Of a stretch of DNA of 64,000 nt, positions 6,896 through 55,794 are shown piece after piece (position 1 is the stretch's first letter; each line of letters begins with the position of its first letter). Both the position numbers and the translations under genes were made by a program. The notes under the pieces are model-generated. The model saw only the letters and a list, made by a program, of their open reading frames with translations, was not told the DNA's origin and did not search any database. Source of the stretch: Alphaproteobacteria bacterium (lineage in GTDB: Bacteria > Pseudomonadota > Alphaproteobacteria > UBA828); assembly GCA_965214705.1 (NCBI GenBank), contig CBDCCI010000002.1, forward strand, positions 1,952,001 through 2,016,000, written 5' to 3'.

Positions 6896-6971
<76 letters not shown>

Positions 6972-12257: not shown

Positions 12258-12331
12258 TGGCTGGGGCGCCAGGATTCGAACCTGGGATCACGGGACCAAA
12301 ACCCGTTGCCTTACCGCTTGGCTACGCCCCA
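12258..12331 (-). tRNA. tRNA-Gln(TTG)
   Basis: Reverse complement TGGGGCGTAGCCAAGCGGTAAGGCAACGGGTTTTGGTCCCGTGATCCCAGGTTCGAATCCTGGCGCCCCAGCCA; anticodon TTG. Confidence 0.97.
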
Positions 12332-16863: not shown

Positions 16864-16924
16864 GAACACCACGGTCGTGATTGACCCGATGTTCCTAGTT
16901 TAGTCCAATTTGAGTCTTTTTGTA

Positions 16925-17014
16925 TCCCTCAGACGCCGGGCGCTCGCTCCGCTCGCTTGGCTTTCGCGCCTTACGGCGCGCGGCGCAGTCGCGCCGTCCG
17001 GGCCTTCGGCCCGG
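16925..17014 (-). repeat. Four-hairpin dispersed element, copy A
   Basis: TCCCTCAGACGCCGGGC GCTCGCTCCGCTCGC TTGGCTTT CGCGCC-TTAC-GGCGCG CGGCGC-AGTC-GCGCCG T CCGGGCC-TTC-GGCCCGG; aligns with 53162-53250. Confidence 0.85.
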
Positions 17015-50857: not shown

Positions 50858-53077
50858 ATGACGACACGAATCGCGTCCGCGGTTCGCGCACTCGCATCGG
50901 AGCTGCGGGCCGATGCCGGCTCGGCCATGCTGCCGACTGCGCTATCCACAGGCCTCATCATCGCTGTGATCGTGCTGGTCGGCGAAGCCGCCATCGCCTC
51001 CATCATCTTCTCGGGGCCACTCTCCCCGCTCGTCCCCCAGGGCACGGGTGCGATCCTGTTCGGCACGCTCGTCATGTGCTTTCTCACGGCGCTGGCCTGC
51101 ACCTACAAGGGCACGATCTCCGTCCCCCACTTCGCGCCGGCCGCGGTGCTGCTGACGATCGGCGCTGCGGTCGCCGCCGTCATGGTCTCCGCCAGCGGCG
51201 AGGCGGTGTTCGCGACGATGATCGTCATCGTCGGCCTGTCGACCGTGGCGACGGCGATCTGCTACCTGCTCATCGGGTGGTTCGGGCTCGCCCGTCTGTT
51301 CCGCTTCATGCCCTACCCCCTGGTTGGCGGGTTTCTTGCGGGGCTCGGCTGGTTCCTGGTCAAGAGCAGCGTCGCGGTGGCGAGCGGAATCACGATGACG
51401 TGGGAGACGCTGCCCACGCTGGCCGAGATCGACACGATCCAGAAGTGGGCGCCAGCCGTGTTCTATGGTGTCCTGCTGCTCGTCGTCGCCAAGGTCCGGC
51501 CCCACTATCTCATCCTGCCCGGATCGGCAGTGGTCGCGATCGGGGTCTGCCACGCAACGCTCTTCGCACTCGACATACCGCTCGCGGAAGCCACTGCGGC
51601 GGGCATCCTGTTCGTGGGTATCCCGGCGGGGTCCGCCTGGCCTCCCATCGGGTTGAGCGATCTCGCTCTTGTGGACTGGGGTGTGGTGACGTCTCAGCTT
51701 CCCGGAATCCTGGCCGTGATGCTGGTCGCCCTCATCAGCCTTGTGTTCTGTGCGGGCGGGCTGGAGCTGATCAGCGGCGTCCAGATCGACCTGAACAGGG
51801 AGTTCCGTGCGGAAGGCGTCTCCAGCCTGTTGGCCGGACTCGGCGGCAGCGCCCCCGGCTGCAACTCGATCCCCAACTCCGCGGTCAGCCATGCAACCGG
51901 GGCCGAGACCCGGCTGACGGGGGTCACGGTCGCGCTCATCGTCGGCCTGATTCTGTTCGTCGGCGGCGACGTCCTGGCGCTGATTCCGACGCCGGTGCTC
52001 GGCGGTCTCGTGCTGTTCGTCGGACTCAACCTGCCCTACGAAGTGCTGGTCTCCAACCGCAAGACGCTGCCGTGGCTGGATTACGGCATCGTCCTCGCGG
52101 TCTCGCTCGTCATCGTCTTCGTCGGGTTCCTGGAAGGCGTGGCCGTGGGGCTCGCGGCGGCCGTGGTCTTCTTCGTCGTGCGCTTCAGCAAGGTGAGCGT
52201 CGTCGATGAAGCCTTCACGCTGCGCCAGCAGCGCAGCAAAAGGACCCGTTCCGCCACCCACAACGCCATTCTCCGCCATTGGGCCGAGCGGGTGCAGGTC
52301 TATCGGCTGCGCGGCTACGTCATTTTCGGCAATGCCGCCGCCATCGGCGACCGTCTCAATCGAGTGCTCAAGGCCGAACCGCCTCCCCTGTGCGTGTTGC
52401 TGGACTTCGCACAGGTCTCGGGCTTCGACAGCTCGGCCGCAAATGTCATGAGCCGCGCGGTCCGGGCTGCGCACGCGCGGGGCACGCGAATCGTGCTCAG
52501 CGCCGCGGCCGAGCACGTCCGCTCCATCCTGCATCGCGGCCTGCCTGCCCCCTTGCGGGACTCGCTGATCCTGGTCGAGGATCTCGACCGTGCGTTGGAA
52601 CGCTGCGAGGACCTCGTCATCGCCGAGTGGGATCGCCAGCACGGCGGCTCGGACGAGGCGCGGGAGGAGCTGTTCGGATTGTCCTTCGATCACGCCATGC
52701 GCGACCTCGACAGGCAGTCCCGCTTCGAGGCGCTCGTGCACCGGCTTGCGCCCTGGCTGGAGACCCGCAGCTTTGAGGCCGGCGAGATCATGGTGGCACG
52801 TGACGAGGTGATGGACGGCATGCTCCTCGTGACCGAGGGCCGGGCCGTCGCCCGCGAGGACGACACCGGCTCAAGGGTGGAAGAGTACGGCCCTGGCGAT
52901 GCGCTTGTCGCCGGCGCTGCGCTCGCACCGCATGTGTCGCGGACGCCGGTGATCGCAGAGGTGCCGTGCCGCGCCCTCCTGATGACACCCGCCGCGCGCG
53001 AGGCCCTGGAGCGCGACGACCTGGCGCTTGTCGTCGAGCTCGACCGTTACCTCATCGAGACGATGTCGGCGCAGTAG
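50858..53077 (+). CDS. SulP/SLC26 anion transporter with STAS and cNMP-binding domains
   Basis: FMPYPLVGGFLAG, DLNREF, STAS (LRGYVIFGNA, LDFAQVSGFDSSA), C-terminal cNMP-like domain. Confidence 0.9.
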   Translation: MTTRIASAVRALASELRADAGSAMLPTALSTGLIIAVIVLVGEAAIASIIFSGPLSPLVPQGTGAILFGTLVMCFLTALACTYKGTISVPHFAPAAVLLTIGAAVAAVMVSASGEAVFATMIVIVGLSTVATAICYLLIGWFGLARLFRFMPYPLVGGFLAGLGWFLVKSSVAVASGITMTWETLPTLAEIDTIQKWAPAVFYGVLLLVVAKVRPHYLILPGSAVVAIGVCHATLFALDIPLAEATAAGILFVGIPAGSAWPPIGLSDLALVDWGVVTSQLPGILAVMLVALISLVFCAGGLELISGVQIDLNREFRAEGVSSLLAGLGGSAPGCNSIPNSAVSHATGAETRLTGVTVALIVGLILFVGGDVLALIPTPVLGGLVLFVGLNLPYEVLVSNRKTLPWLDYGIVLAVSLVIVFVGFLEGVAVGLAAAVVFFVVRFSKVSVVDEAFTLRQQRSKRTRSATHNAILRHWAERVQVYRLRGYVIFGNAAAIGDRLNRVLKAEPPPLCVLLDFAQVSGFDSSAANVMSRAVRAAHARGTRIVLSAAAEHVRSILHRGLPAPLRDSLILVEDLDRALERCEDLVIAEWDRQHGGSDEAREELFGLSFDHAMRDLDRQSRFEALVHRLAPWLETRSFEAGEIMVARDEVMDGMLLVTEGRAVAREDDTGSRVEEYGPGDALVAGAALAPHVSRTPVIAEVPCRALLMTPAAREALERDDLALVVELDRYLIETMSAQ

Positions 53078-53123
53078 GCGAGGCCTTTGCGACCCCACCT
53101 CCCCCTGTCCCCCTCCCAACTTA

Positions 53124-53250
53124 TTCATTTCCCTCAATCGCCGGGCGCTCGTATTTTCATTTCCCTCAACGGCGGGCGCGAACTCCGTTCGCTTGGCTCC
53201 GCGCTTCGCGCGCGGCGCATTCGCGCCGTCCGGGCTGCTTCGCAGCCCGG
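53124..53250 (-). repeat. Four-hairpin dispersed element, copy B, preceded by a duplicated left end
   Basis: TTCATTTCCCTCAA at 53124 and 53156, then GCGAAC-TCC-GTTCGC TTGGCTC CGCGC-TTC-GCGCG CGGCGC-ATTC-GCGCCG T CCGGGCTGC-TTC-GCAGCCCGG. Confidence 0.85.
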
Positions 53251-53344
53251 TCCCATCAGGGCAAACGCTTCGTCGGTTGCCGGTAGCGTGCCCCGGACCA
53301 TGGTGCGGTGCACAGGAAGGGGCGGCGCGGGGCAGCATCGCGGG

Positions 53345-54133
53345 ATGAGCCACCACACCACCCGCGAGCACAGCCACGCCATGCAAAACGAACCCCCAAA
53401 GAGCACAACGGCCGGGACGTTCGGCCGCTCCTCCATCGACCGCCTGCCGGCCAAGCTTCGCGAGGCTGTCGATCAGGCCATCGCGGACGGCGCCACCATC
53501 GACGAGATCACCGCCCGCATCCGGGCCCAAGGCGAGACATGCTCGCGCTCGGCCGTCGGCCGCTACGCCAAGAACATGCGCGACCTGATCTGCCAGCAGC
53601 AGGAGACCGACCGCACCATCAAGGCGTGGATGGACGCGCTCGGAGAGCGCCCGGAGGGCCAGGCGGGGCTCATCCTGATCGAGACCCTGCGGACCATGGC
53701 GCTCGCCACCATGGCTCGTCTCAGCGCGCGGGAAGAGCCCGTGTCGACGGAGGAGCTCGCCCGCCTCGCCCTCACCCTCAAGCGCATCGAAGGCACCGAC
53801 AAGCTCCGCAAAGACCGGGAGCGGGCGGCAAAGAAGGCGGCGAACGACGCAGACAGCGCCAAGCGCCAGGGCGGGCTCTCGCCGGAGGCGGTCGCCATCA
53901 TCCGCGCGGAGGTGGAGGGCAGGCCCCCGCCACCCCCGCCTGCTCCCCGCACCGTCACGTCGGTGCCGGTGGACCCGTGGAACCCTGCCGAAGCCCGCCT
54001 ATACCCATCAATCCCACCTGATCCCGGCGAATCCCACTTGAGCCCGGATAATTGCTATGAATCCTGGACGGAAATTGCGCCGCGGGTGTTTCGCACCAGC
54101 CCCACATCGATCCTGTCCCTCGGGCCGGCGTGA
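53345..54133 (+). CDS. DUF3486 / phage Mu gp27-like protein with C-terminal extension
   Basis: RSSIDRLP..LRE HTH start, SRSAVGRY, GLSPEAVAIIRAE end-of-domain motif; start ATG 53345 or 53381. Confidence 0.8.
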   Translation: MSHHTTREHSHAMQNEPPKSTTAGTFGRSSIDRLPAKLREAVDQAIADGATIDEITARIRAQGETCSRSAVGRYAKNMRDLICQQQETDRTIKAWMDALGERPEGQAGLILIETLRTMALATMARLSAREEPVSTEELARLALTLKRIEGTDKLRKDRERAAKKAANDADSAKRQGGLSPEAVAIIRAEVEGRPPPPPPAPRTVTSVPVDPWNPAEARLYPSIPPDPGESHLSPDNCYESWTEIAPRVFRTSPTSILSLGPA

Positions 54134-54165
54134 GGCGCGGGCGGGAGTGTGGCGGGAAAAGCCGT

Positions 54166-55794
54166 TCAGGCGTCCGGCAGCCGGTAGTCCTGGAACATCT
54201 CGCGCAGGCGCGACTTCTGAATCTTGCCCGTGGCGGTGAGCGGCAGCTCGTCGACCAACACCACGTCGTCGGGCAGCCACCACTTCGCGACCCTGGCGGC
54301 AAGGTAGGCGTTGATGGTGTCCTTGTCCGGTGCGCAGCCGTCCCGCGGCACGACCACCATGAGTGGGCGCTCCTCCCACTTGGGATGGAAGACGCCGATG
54401 ACCGCGGCCTGCTTCACGTCCGGGTGGCCGACTGCCGCGTTCTCCAGGTCGATGGAGCTGATCCACTCGCCGCCCGACTTGATCACGTCCTTGGTGCGGT
54501 CGGTGATGCGCATGAAGCCGTGCTCGTCCAGGGTGGCGACGTCGCCGGTGGGGAACCAGCCGTCGCCGTCGAGCTTGTCCCCGCCCTCGCCCTTGAAGTA
54601 GCCGCTGGCAGCCCAGTTGCCGCGCACCCACATGTCGCCAAAAGTCTTGCCGTCGCGCGGCACCGGCGCGCCGTCCGCGTCCGTGATCTGGAGTTCCAGG
54701 CCGAACTGCACGCGGCCCTGCTGGCTCAGCACGGCCTCGCGTTCGTCGCCAGAGAGTGCGTCGATCGCCGGCGTCGCGGTCGCCATGGTGCCGAGCGGCG
54801 AGGTCTCGGTCATGCCCCAGAGCTGGTGCACCGTCACCCCGTAGGGGTCGGCCAGTCGCTCGATCATGGCGCGCGGCACCGCGGAGCCGCCGATGGCGAC
54901 CCGCTCCAGGCTCTCCACCTTCTTGCCGCTCTCGTCGAGATGGTCGATCAGCATGGTGAAGACCGTGGGCACACCGAGCGCGAAGGTCACCCCCTCCCCC
55001 TCGATCAGCTCCTGCAGGCTCTGCCCGTCCATCTTGGTGCCGGGCAGCACCAGGCCCGCGCCGGAGAGGCAGCCGAGATAGGGCAGCGACCAGGCGTTGC
55101 CGTGGTACATCGGCGCGATCGGCATCAGCACGTCGTGGGCGGAGATGCCCATGGCGCTGTTCTGGCAGGCGGCCATAGCGTGCAGCAGGGTCGAGCGGTG
55201 GCTGTAGAGCACGCCCTTGGGATTGCCCGTCGTGCCCGAGGTGTAGCAGAGCGAGGACGCGGCGCGCTCGTCGAAGATCGGCCACGCATAGTCCTCGCTC
55301 TCGCCCGCGAGCAGGGTCTCGTAGCAGAGGACGTTGGGAAGCGCGGTCTCCGGCATGTGCGCCTCGTCGGTCATCACCACGACCTGCTCGACCGTCGTGA
55401 GTTGGTCCGCGATGCGCTCCACCAGCTCGACGAAGGTGAGGTCCACGAACAGCACCCGGTCCTCGGCGTGGTTGATGATGTAGACGATCTGCTCGGTGAA
55501 GAGCCTGGGGTTCACCGTGTGCAGCACGGCGCCCATGCCGGAGACGCCGTAGAAAAGCTCCTGATGGCGATAGCCGTTCCAGGCGAGCGTGCCGACCCGG
55601 TCGCCGTGGCCGATGCCGAGCCGCGCTATGAGGTTGGCGACGCGCCGCGCGCGCCGCTCGCACTCGGCATAGCCGTAGCGGTGGATCGGGCCTTCGACGG
55701 TGCGCGAGACCACCTGGCGATCGCCGTGATACTCCGCCGCATAACGGATCAGCGACGAGATCATCAGCGGGATCTCCTGCATCAGGCCGTGCAT
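54166..55794 (-). CDS. Acyl-CoA ligase (AlkK/DmdB-like medium-chain or methylmercaptopropionate CoA ligase)
   Basis: [54 protein letters not shown]. Confidence 0.9.

Follow-up and report, generated by a model that had tools for sequence, protein, structure and literature searches.

Repeated chromosomal units carrying a Mu gp27-like (DUF3486) gene behind a conserved core in one alphaproteobacterial genus

Where bacteria have kept phage packaging genes for themselves, two arrangements are known, the complete gene transfer agent and the satellite that can excise. PICIs with TerS and capsid-forming PICIs (cf-PICIs) are described as satellites that carry packaging genes of their own (10.1101/2025.02.11.637232, PMC10085698, PMC10690885), and RcGTA as a gene transfer agent with a small terminase (PMC6854486). 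Lateral transduction is described as starting at in-situ pac sites of one intact prophage or PICI (PMC8575938, PMC8575950, PMC12829572).

The locus considered here lies in a window of 64,000 nucleotides, the whole stretch of DNA that was analysed, from an alphaproteobacterial genome. Positions 53094–54141 hold, in order, a C-tract, an element head in duplicate, an element of four hairpins, an intact open reading frame (ORF) of the Mu gp27/DUF3486 family and phased ATCCC repeats. As one of the long forms, this segment belongs to a repeated family of units that, among the searched genomes, occurs in a single genus; the general order of the unit is an optional hairpin element, a 21-nt core, a leader of ~30 nt, an ATG at +51/52, the DUF3486 gene, a phased-repeat array and the right end. 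The small-terminase-like gene itself (53345–54133, + strand, 262 codons) matches Pfam PF11985 (Phage_Mu_Gp27) at E 1.6e-26, with 94.2 bits against a cut-off of 28 and profile positions 1–171 of 173, and PHROG 426 (‘terminase small subunit’) at E 4.6e-33, with profile positions 5–181 of 184. These near-full-length matches place the protein in the Mu gp27/DUF3486 family and bear out an earlier claim of an intact DUF3486 ORF with a repeat-bearing tail, the ATCCC repeats of which recur at a 10-nt phase. By database annotation, gp27 is the presumed small terminase of Mu. A second ATG (53381) is the start in most homologues; M13 is almost invariant in alignment A2.

An AF2 model of the protein (pLDDT 78.9) has an N-terminal helix-turn-helix (HTH) plus long helices. 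Fold searches recovered no small-terminase fold above noise: Foldseek against the PDB gave no match at E ≤ 0.001 and small terminases only at E > 1, and the VIA wide structure search returned generic helical hairpins alone (Z 7–8.6). At the sequence level, a PDB search gave HTH-level noise only (StbA, E 0.11), PADLOC and NCBIfam profiles gave nothing beyond noise, and a peptide-pattern search of viral contigs (IMG/VR) found no close relative. A near-invariant peptide, TVTSVPVDPWNPAE, follows a proline-rich linker (53951–54001, + strand); it is kept in 25/25 aligned copies, its region has the lowest dN/dS of the gene (0.16), and it is a candidate protein–protein contact motif. Two metatranscriptome runs yield contigs over the cassette, as multi-copy sequence at ≥88% identity that may derive from DNA and from which start, strand and level are not readable; the X19 contigs, to which the same multi-copy matching at ≥88% identity and possible DNA origin apply, cover the cassette and leave the adjacent sulP gene uncovered. 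Runs labelled sponge metagenome contain 25–32% of the sampled words.

The gene had been called solitary in a preliminary description of this DNA, and in the window and around every copy it is: none of the 122 ORFs neighbouring the copies is a phage structural gene, there is no terminase, portal or capsid neighbour, and all nine copies lack the Mu order, in which the gene lies directly upstream of TerL. Genome-wide it is not, for there are nine DUF3486 matches (eight above cut-off), and relatives contain up to 16 copies per genome. The copies are maintained rather than decaying. Among six close paralogues dN/dS is 0.31–0.63, and below 1 in 15/15 pairs; orthologues at the sulP–ligase site of the window, which the cassette occupies in at least five related loci, give 0.34–0.67; and intact DUF3486 ORFs stand at orthologous sites across species with flanks diverged by 6–11%. 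With nine copies here and dN/dS of 0.35–0.5, the locus is a discrete repeated cassette, as had been proposed, rather than the unique remnant with dN/dS near 1 that was the stated alternative. We disfavour, as very improbable, the reading that the copies are leftovers of old Mu-like prophages that evolve neutrally and are kept alike by gene conversion. Fragments and stop-bearing copies do occur (14/123 match rows from relatives have in-frame stops, and many rows are fragments), as do signs of gene conversion, in that the copy which G017 has at the d1 site shares 94.6% identity with the window copy and 92.4% with d1. Neutrality is nevertheless hard to reconcile with ORFs that stay intact at orthologous sites despite such flank divergence, with paralogue ratios that are all below 1, or with the strong constraint on TerL and portal described below.

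The hairpin element (53156–53254, + strand) comprises a head and four GC-rich hairpins, the latter located between 53171 and 53250 in agreement with what had been noted before. The genome has 46 HSPs to it and 26 near-full copies; across these copies, 27 predicted pairs are 97.3% paired and five pairs have compensatory changes; the single-sequence fold of 53078–53344 is no better than shuffles (z −0.35). Short, intergenic and multi-copy, with conserved hairpins, it is REP/BIME-like. Rfam finds only two tRNAs at gathering score in the whole window, and nothing at E ≤ 1 in 52900–54300. Just upstream lies a truncated extra head (TTCATTTCCCTCAATCGCCGGGCGCTCG, 53124–53151, + strand; direct repeat D3), which corresponds to the duplicated element end of the preliminary description: 53124–53144 and 53156–53176 are 86% identical over 21 nt, and tandem heads also occur at related loci. 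The G-tract cluster seen earlier is present as well, at 53094–53120, with its G on the − strand and its C on the + strand; this C-tract motif, CCCACCTCCCCCTGTCCCCCTCCCAAC, is a separate short repeat that often stands beside hairpin elements, with 14 genomic copies at ≤2 mismatches and 23-nt exact copies adjoining hairpin elements at related loci.

Judged from its distribution, the hairpin element, which had been assigned to the cassette, lies outside the cassette proper and forms a REP-like family of its own: only 6/26 near-full copies are at DUF3486 cassettes, and genome G011 has the element and no DUF3486. The second copy reported near position 16925 does exist (16914–17014, + strand). It lies 36 kb from any core unit and is an independent member of this separate family, not a non-autonomous derivative of the cassette. 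The hairpin element is the integration site of a P4-type integrase (intA) island family, whose 429-aa integrase has five copies at ≥95% identity; at least four of these abut a hairpin element, some without a cassette. We considered a link between integrase and DUF3486, given integrases beside copies d3 and d9 and one short unit, and rejected it: the two beside d3 and d9 are part of an island that has inserted into the hairpin element, and integrase is absent at 6/9 DUF3486 copies. A hairpin element lies within 200 nt of 15/21 right ends, which means that many cassettes are bracketed by direct hairpin copies.

The 21-nt core of the unit, CCGGACCATGGTGCGGTGCAC (53293–53313, + strand), is near-palindromic and may be a site for an operator or an activator; its centre is ~43 nt from the ATG, on the upstream side. 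The core has 40 genomic copies at ≤2 mismatches, nearly all with an ATG at +51/52, and every one of the nine DUF3486 copies sits behind one. There are 9–69 copies in 15/18 genus genomes and none in 12 outgroups (a reversed-pattern control gave 0); a search of IMG/VR for the core with one N gave a single match in unrelated context, about the chance expectation by a rough estimate. In nine usable unit pairs from G017 and G000 the core is 94% identical versus 86–90% just upstream, which is mildly informative. The leader of 30–31 nt from core to first ATG (53314–53344, + strand) consists of a GC-rich stem, CANNAT, 6 nt and the ATG, a pattern taken from a by-eye alignment of 40 copies; it has no Shine-Dalgarno sequence, so the mRNA may be leaderless. 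Core and leader together may be a promoter with its transcription start. A sigma-54, ECF or LexA-type reading of the core was rejected on spacing, by eye against the consensus sequences.

Most core copies are ~250-nt non-coding derivatives, about 30 in all, with core and 3′ phased repeats. Long and short units have both ends in common, and one intermediate has an N-terminally deleted ORF. It is these short core units, unseen in the preliminary description, that are the actual non-autonomous relatives of the cassette; Rfam matches to two of them are at chance level.

These observations bear on the rather improbable idea that the cassettes encode domesticated transcription factors, in which the HTH protein would bind the core and regulate its own and other core promoters, the packaging ancestry being irrelevant. 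The idea is attractive in that 40 units have a 16-bp near-palindrome with constant spacing to the ATG, subtypes with a common core also have a conserved recognition helix, protein and core occur together in 15/15 genomes and are both missing in 3/3, and no Mor/C-type activator for such promoters was found in 31 genomes. It sits poorly with the units themselves: for most there is no conserved ORF to drive, close species differ by a 23-nt indel that disrupts the frame, the downstream genes are a miscellany, and identity over 50+ nt at every site would be unusual for a regulon. Furthermore, the entire gp27 domain has been kept, C-terminal part included.

The phased 10-nt repeats A[TG]CCC lie inside the coding tail (54001–54045, + strand), with ATCCC at 54011, 54021 and 54031 and a degenerate unit on either side (54001 and 54041); the pattern is matched three times here versus 0 in 100 shuffles. 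Copy number varies between cassettes, and the arrays of relatives are of variable length, up to five 30-nt units. Each DUF3486 subtype has its own repeat class, which recurs in short non-coding units; the window subtype has it within the ORF, whereas in d7 it follows the stop codon, which indicates that the repeats are a DNA or RNA feature and not a coding one. It had been suggested that the protein recognises its own repeats. The pairing of subtype with repeat class lends this indirect support; the HTH recognition helix is almost identical across subtypes with different repeat classes; binding of the shared core fits that better than binding of the repeats. The unit closes with a near-invariant right end, ‘tail2’ (54075–54141, + strand), which includes the stop codon (54131–54133) and ends sharply at GGCCGGNGTGAGGCG, with an outer boundary that is sharp in 22 aligned copies. 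Across related loci tail2 is 87.7–98.4% identical to the window copy; it is 88–96% identical at loci with a CDS of only 82–89%, and 96% conserved at locus L064 despite ~1.1 kb of DNA inserted between tail2 and repeats.

Conserved ends, dispersal and short forms raise the possibility, which we consider unlikely, of a selfish element: the family would be MITE-like, with the cassette as its long, autonomous-looking form and with short core units that arose from it by internal deletion, the DUF3486 protein would be a DNA-binding factor that spread requires in trans, with host or island tyrosine recombinases at the hairpins perhaps providing the route, and the core before TerL and portal would reflect common descent alone. 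Such an element would explain long and short forms with both ends alike and the N-terminally deleted intermediate, ends better conserved than the interior, 9–69 copies per genome in a family absent from three genus members, the bracketing of 15/21 right ends by hairpins that are integrase targets, and G018 with its 25 cores and single DUF3486 gene. It would also explain why copies stand at contig ends in fragmented assemblies and at synteny breakpoints. On the other hand, neither transposase nor recombinase is encoded, the sole ORF being DUF3486, a family with no known catalytic activity; the two ends are unlike each other; and terminal inverted repeats, target duplications and clean empty sites were not found. 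A clean sulP–ligase empty site, for which the preliminary description had called, was not found either: the G018 slot is occupied by another gene, and the family-free genomes have different synteny at the ligase gene. G000 and G017 have nine copies each, all positional orthologues, which speaks against recent moves; the two polymorphic sites between these genomes are both replacements without clean borders. Finally, a selfish element leaves purifying selection on a core-bearing TerL and portal unexplained.

The preliminary description had found no large terminase or portal, and that is correct for the window, where terminase, portal, transposase and integrase families have no match among 57 called ORFs; it is not correct for the genome, in which a TerL–portal pair lies ~770 kb from the cassette on the same contig. 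A core (one mismatch, ATG at +51) stands between this TerL and the Mu-type portal, and a degenerate core, also with ATG at +51, stands ahead of TerL. Walker-like, DE and STH motifs can be made out by eye in the 458-aa TerL. Both genes are under purifying selection: dN/dS is 0.09–0.23 for the portal and 0.21 for TerL, at dS 0.27–0.42. Twelve genomes have a full-length TerL uninterrupted by stop codons, and G008 has a split one; in G018, a core with two mismatches precedes TerL, and TerL and portal are 81 kb apart. G003 has a truncated gp27-like gene immediately ahead of TerL, in the Mu order, a sequence arrangement that counts for a common origin of DUF3486 and TerL.

DUF3486, core and portal of this type occur in the same 15/18 genus genomes, and TerL in 14; the fifteenth, G007, is only 67% complete. 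None of the four is found in G011, G015, G016 or the 12 outgroups, apart from a single weak DUF3486 match in G025 and, in G015, an incomplete portal that is of a different type. The three family-free genus genomes are the most diverged (ligase identity 84–85% vs 89–94%), and the co-occurrence of the parts may reflect one acquisition plus shared descent. The 98.5% complete genome has no match to Phage_Mu_F, Mu-like_gpT or HK97 capsid families and no Mu transposase, Mor/C, F or T gene was detected in it, no tail gene was seen near any part, and no helper phage was identified in the window’s genome. Other Mu-type TerL/portal pairs, 29–49% identical, are present in G002, G006, G010 and G012; from their sequences, these are possible helper candidates.

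Bearing these findings in mind, we tentatively favour the reading that the host has a resident packaging system without capsids of its own and that the cassettes are its dispersed modules, each a small terminase plus site; the mechanism we infer is as follows. DUF3486, TerL and portal would be the kept remainder of a Mu-like packaging operon; the small-terminase-like proteins would bind the unit’s own core and/or phased repeats through their conserved HTH, and would then recruit the common TerL and portal, each cassette marking a chromosomal packaging start. Mu-type packaging starts on integrated DNA and a capsid gene was not found; capsids would thus come from a Mu-like phage, whether infecting or resident, and the system would interfere with this capsid donor, transfer flanking host DNA, or do both. 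The earlier view of a packaging-related or domesticated phage DNA-binding protein is compatible with these data. For the packaging reading count the family match, the multi-copy, selected DUF3486 genes, the core before portal and TerL, the purifying selection on these two genes, the co-occurrence in 15 genomes, the gene order in G003, the subtype-tied repeats and the possible helpers. Against it count a dN/dS of 0.35–0.5 that is high for a core function, the stops and fragments among relatives’ copies, the recognition helix shared by subtypes with different repeats, the possible single acquisition behind the co-occurrence, and the lack of a capsid match in the three families searched and of a helper phage in this genome; to these are added the separation of TerL and portal in G018, the split TerL in G008 and the unrecovered small-terminase fold.

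A quite improbable rival reading dispenses with DNA transfer: host-kept proteins, with or without TerL and portal, would act as an anti-phage decoy that poisons or misdirects the packaging of Mu-like phages. Its appeal lies in the G018 sulP–ligase slot, which has an AbiJ-like gene instead of the cassette (PADLOC candidate PDC-S32, E 3.3e-52), in the Mu-type phages within the genus, and in paralogue diversification and a variable tail, which are arms-race traits. One slot replacement is an anecdote, however; the PADLOC match of the DUF3486 protein itself is at noise level, and ~30 non-coding units with conserved cis ends are left unexplained. Within the packaging reading, it is conceivable but unlikely that one TerL, one portal, many TerS-plus-site modules and site-only derivatives under one promoter signal seize the capsid proteins of an infecting Mu-like phage and fill them with host chromosome from dozens of starts. 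Such a system would unite defence with genome-wide gene transfer and would form an undescribed class between satellites and gene transfer agents.

What we describe is a small terminase, TerL and portal kept under selection across at least 15 species (TerL in 14 genomes), with the parts scattered and the small-terminase gene multiplied along with its own DNA signals. If the parts cooperate, bacteria would have a new way of turning the phages that infect them to use, in defence or in the exchange of genes, and there would be a testable handle on Mu-type small-terminase recognition. The conservative gain is a large unnamed repeat family, with 9–69 copies per genome and a promoter-like core that is sharply conserved, together with a REP-like element acting as an integrase target and the first function-relevant context for DUF3486 outside phages; in full-text literature searches DUF3486 turned up in one paper and Phage_Mu_Gp27 in none.

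REP/BIME elements and MITEs are the comparison classes for the repeated DNA. The hairpin element resembles REP/BIME in being a short, GC-rich sequence, found between genes in many copies, with compensatory changes, and the relation of short core unit to long cassette is like that of a MITE to an IS; unlike these classes, the core units are asymmetric, without inverted ends or transposase, and the hairpin element is an integrase target. The cassette protein resembles phage Mu gp27 in its near-full-length profile match and in its HTH and long helices, whereas its gene lies away from TerL in nine dispersed copies, and it has an extra tail of ~70 residues with a near-invariant VPVDPWNP motif and translated DNA repeats.

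PICIs and cf-PICIs share with our system phage-derived packaging proteins outside a complete phage, and a helper would have to supply the other virion parts. In contrast, the cassettes do not form one excisable island and have no integrase, replication or regulatory module; their parts lie dispersed along the chromosome and occupy fixed orthologous positions in different species; and portal and TerL are present while a capsid gene was not found, cf-PICIs being described as making their own capsids. Gene transfer agents are likewise host-resident, vertically inherited phage packaging genes, possibly at several loci under common control; here, unlike there, no capsid or head-maturation gene was found in the three families searched, and the small-terminase gene is multi-copy with site-like repeats, as against the sequence-blind terminase of gene transfer agents. 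As in lateral transduction, packaging would, by analogy, start on the unexcised chromosome and take flanking host genes with it; there the pac is that of one intact prophage or PICI, whereas here there would be many stand-alone TerS-plus-site modules.

The layout proposed in the preliminary description is borne out: the convergent genes for a SulP/STAS/cNMP transporter (50858-53077, + strand; left flank) and an AMP-binding ligase (54166-55794, - strand; right flank) enclose all the features it listed. These are a C-tract (53094-53120), a truncated copy of the element head (53124-53151), a complete copy of the hairpin element (53156-53254) and an intact DUF3486 ORF that starts at 53345 (or 53381) and ends at 54133. 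This ORF matches Pfam PF11985, Phage_Mu_Gp27, over nearly the whole profile (E 1.6e-26), and also PHROG 426, 'terminase small subunit' (E 4.6e-33). A pattern search places ATCCC repeats at 54011, 54021 and 54031, three matches vs none in 100 shuffles. Terminase, portal, transposase and integrase are, as had been claimed, missing from the window: none of the 57 called ORFs, profile-scanned in two sets (5 + 52), matches these families. Gene content is otherwise typical of core chromosome (ribosomal protein S2, EF-Ts, DnaE, S1); the sole Rfam matches at gathering score are tRNA genes at 6896-6968 (+) and 12261-12331 (-).

The DUF3486 gene, the paralogues of which were to be counted, is not unique: the whole genome (G000; 7.92 Mb, 3 contigs) contains nine PF11985 matches, eight over the cut-off and one weak, and six copies are close paralogues (80-92% DNA identity over about 0.85-1.0 kb). 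No phage structural genes lie beside them among 122 ORFs called in 12 loci, eight around other DUF3486 copies and four around leader-only copies. We note that G000 has 8.7% estimated contamination, exceeds all 18 relatives from its genus in size (2.8-6.3 Mb) and contains several multi-kb segments three or more times. Among 30 related genomes, DUF3486 is present in 15 of the 18 from the same genus (maximum 15-16 matches per genome) and, as a weak match, in one of the 12 from outside it; in fragmented assemblies the copies are often at contig ends. In the related genomes, 14 of 123 listed match rows have in-frame stops and many rows are fragmentary; decaying copies thus occur alongside intact ones.

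All nine copies in G000 are preceded by a 21-nt near-palindrome, CCGGACCATGGTGCGGTGCAC, the core. It occurs 40 times in G000 at up to 2 mismatches, with an ATG at +51/52 in nearly all cases; the intervening leader comprises a GC-rich stem, CANNAT and then 6 nt, and a Shine-Dalgarno sequence is absent between core and ATG. The core is found in exactly those 15 of 18 same-genus genomes that have DUF3486, and in none of the 12 outgroups: a unit family with a shared promoter-like core is limited to this genus among the genomes searched. A domesticated family of regulators is one rival account of such units. Contigs from two metatranscriptome runs cover the cassette, but as evidence for transcription of the window copy itself they do not suffice.

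The window protein belongs to the Mu gp27 family by profile, and is not adjacent to a large terminase (TerL), the usual context of that family. G000 has a single large terminase (Terminase_6C; PHROG 2 and 5909) and a single Mu-type portal (PF06074, E 8.9e-88; PHROG 113), paired on contig 3 at 1236983-1239769 (L065:11983-14769, - strand) among housekeeping genes and a ParE toxin-antitoxin pair; neighbours include pyruvate carboxylase and a MetE-like gene, and no further phage gene is close by. A core with one mismatch lies between the two genes; its ATG at +51 opens a 17-codon frame, the stop of which overlaps the portal start. TerL is itself preceded by a degenerate core with ATG at +51 (two mismatches in the related genome G018), is 458 aa long counted from that ATG, and by eye shows what we take to be Walker-like, DE and STH motifs. 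Both genes are clearly under purifying selection across species, with dN/dS of 0.09-0.23 for the portal (vs four species) and 0.21 for TerL (vs two species) at dS 0.27-0.42. A portal of this type is present in the same 15 of 18 same-genus genomes, and TerL in 14; both have 0 of 12 among outgroups. The fifteenth genome, G007, has no TerL match and is 67% complete; in G008 TerL is split by an insertion; in G003 a truncated gp27-like gene immediately precedes TerL, the order known from Mu; and the only portal in G015 is a partial one of a different type. Some members of the genus also carry Mu-type TerL/portal pairs that belong to other lineages. In G000 there is no match to Phage_Mu_F, Mu-like_gpT or HK97 capsid, nor to the Mu transposase core, the last being weak evidence as the DDE_2 search was also silent in control genomes; Mor/C is found in none of the 31 genomes.

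From these sequence comparisons we infer that DUF3486, TerL and portal derive from a Mu-like packaging operon and have been retained. The dispersed small-terminase genes, with their own DNA signals, would mark packaging start sites; the single TerL and portal would serve all of them, and capsids would come from a helper phage. Against this, a single acquisition could account for the co-occurrence of the components, given that the genomes lacking all of them are also the three most diverged.

When the 40 core copies in G000 are sorted by motif content, seven belong to DUF3486 cassettes (the cores of the other two cassettes are more degenerate), one to a cassette deleted N-terminally, 10 to short units with GRCCACCTTG...CCGGAATAGGCCG arrays, 14 to short units with ATCCCRC-type arrays, one each to the portal and a DUF5675 gene, and six have no recognisable 3' module. 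The DUF5675/PHROG 1501 gene (L128:2165-2686) takes as its start the +51 ATG that follows a perfect core (G000 C3:2897534 unit). A short unit measures about 250-300 nt, and its apparent ORF is not conserved: one unit compared between G000 and its closest relative, G017, has a 23-nt internal indel, and the conserved parts are the core, the first ~45 nt past the ATG and the 3' module. A selfish, MITE-like family is a second rival reading of these units. One short unit (L108, G000 C1:2184377) points towards groES-groEL, which begins ~375 nt further on and is oriented alike, and another (L122) faces a second groEL. The short-unit arrays contain CTTG, a target of the IS91 family. G000 also has ~100 near-identical 346-360-aa tyrosine recombinases, paired with an IS91-type Y2 transposase (e.g. 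L068:5361-7646, L103, L106); this element sits right past the 3' array in four of 29 short-unit loci, and three more loci have a DDE or IS66 element at that position.

Each DUF3486 subtype is paired with its own repeat class, a third class accompanying the copy d8. Since the repeats lie within the coding tail in the window subtype and directly past the stop codon in copy d7, they are a DNA or RNA signal, translated only incidentally in the window subtype. Subtypes that differ in their repeats have the same recognition helix, which counts against the proposed packaging role. The 3' end of long cassettes has a sharp border, and its last ~60 nt are 88-96% conserved where the coding region is only 82-89%.

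The hairpin element has 26 near-full copies in G000; pairing is 97.3% across 27 predicted pairs, five of which show compensatory changes. Only nine of these copies have a core within 1.3 kb, and where the hairpin is upstream the spacing is fixed, at 135-143 nt (seven cases) or 214-230 nt (two further cases); another copy lies no more than 200 nt past the cassette right end in 15 of 21. The preliminary description had united hairpin and DUF3486 in one cassette; this view does not hold, as only 6/26 copies are at cassettes and genome G011 has the hairpin though it lacks cassette and core. The hairpin is thus separate from the cassette, and the copy at 16925, suggested as a possible non-autonomous derivative, is an ordinary family member 36 kb from any core. 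The P4-type integrases adjoining the DUF3486 copies d3 and d9 share 96% identity; this 429-aa protein has five copies at >=95% identity (L011:8536-9822, L017:7894-9177, G000 C1:265385, C3:1322318 and C3:2903342), at least four of which are inserted in a hairpin's 3' half. Because, in addition, the hairpin-cassette junction at d3 is uninterrupted in G017 where G000 has the integrase, the hairpin is the insertion site of the P4-type integrase island. From the location of the hairpin's other half, the d3 island may extend up to ~197 kb.

Related loci with a cassette at the sulP-ligase site number at least five (L039, L037, L041, L064 and L059), some with extra inserted DNA; flank identity is 89-94% and cassette identity 73-94%. 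The insert in L064 (6674-7794) places ~1.1 kb, including pieces matching repeats elsewhere in G000, between the phased repeats and a right end that is still 96% identical. All nine DUF3486 copies of G017 match those of G000 by position, with at least one flank each; more distant genomes have cassettes at places empty or different in G000, and several cassettes are at synteny breakpoints. In one related MAG (L061 and L063, vs G000 C2:150828/151904), each flank of copy d1 runs into the 3' end of a cassette, the two cassettes being different and oppositely oriented. This points to an inversion or insertion event between inverted cassettes, or else to misassembly caused by the repeats.

Codon analysis, for which dN/dS had been named as a check, used the 25 of 37 sources with the N-terminus and stop inside the locus (12 truncated copies were dropped). 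Over the gp27 domain the median pairwise (Nei-Gojobori) dN/dS is 0.49; values are 0.31-0.63 among the six paralogues, 0.34-0.67 among positional orthologues and 0.16 over the invariant peptide TVTSVPVDPWNPAE. The DUF3486 gene is under moderate purifying selection, not neutrality, which speaks against the rival idea that the copies are neutral debris; the cassette values are fairly high, a point against the packaging reading. Anti-phage decoys are a further alternative, for which the sulP-ligase slot of G018 offers one hint of a defence context: there, the place of the cassette is taken by a gene of low GC (L129:590-1477; 296 aa) that encodes an AbiJ N-terminal domain and matches the PADLOC candidate PDC-S32 (E 3.3e-52).

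In full-text literature, the only mention of DUF3486 that we found is a phage annotation in one paper; Phage_Mu_Gp27 gave no mention, and a broader search yielded nothing relevant. Satellites that carry packaging genes are similar in that phage packaging genes are kept, and differ from the present case, which has no excisable island with an integrase. Gene transfer agents differ in that no structural gene set was found here, and share with these units the feature of packaging genes kept by the host.
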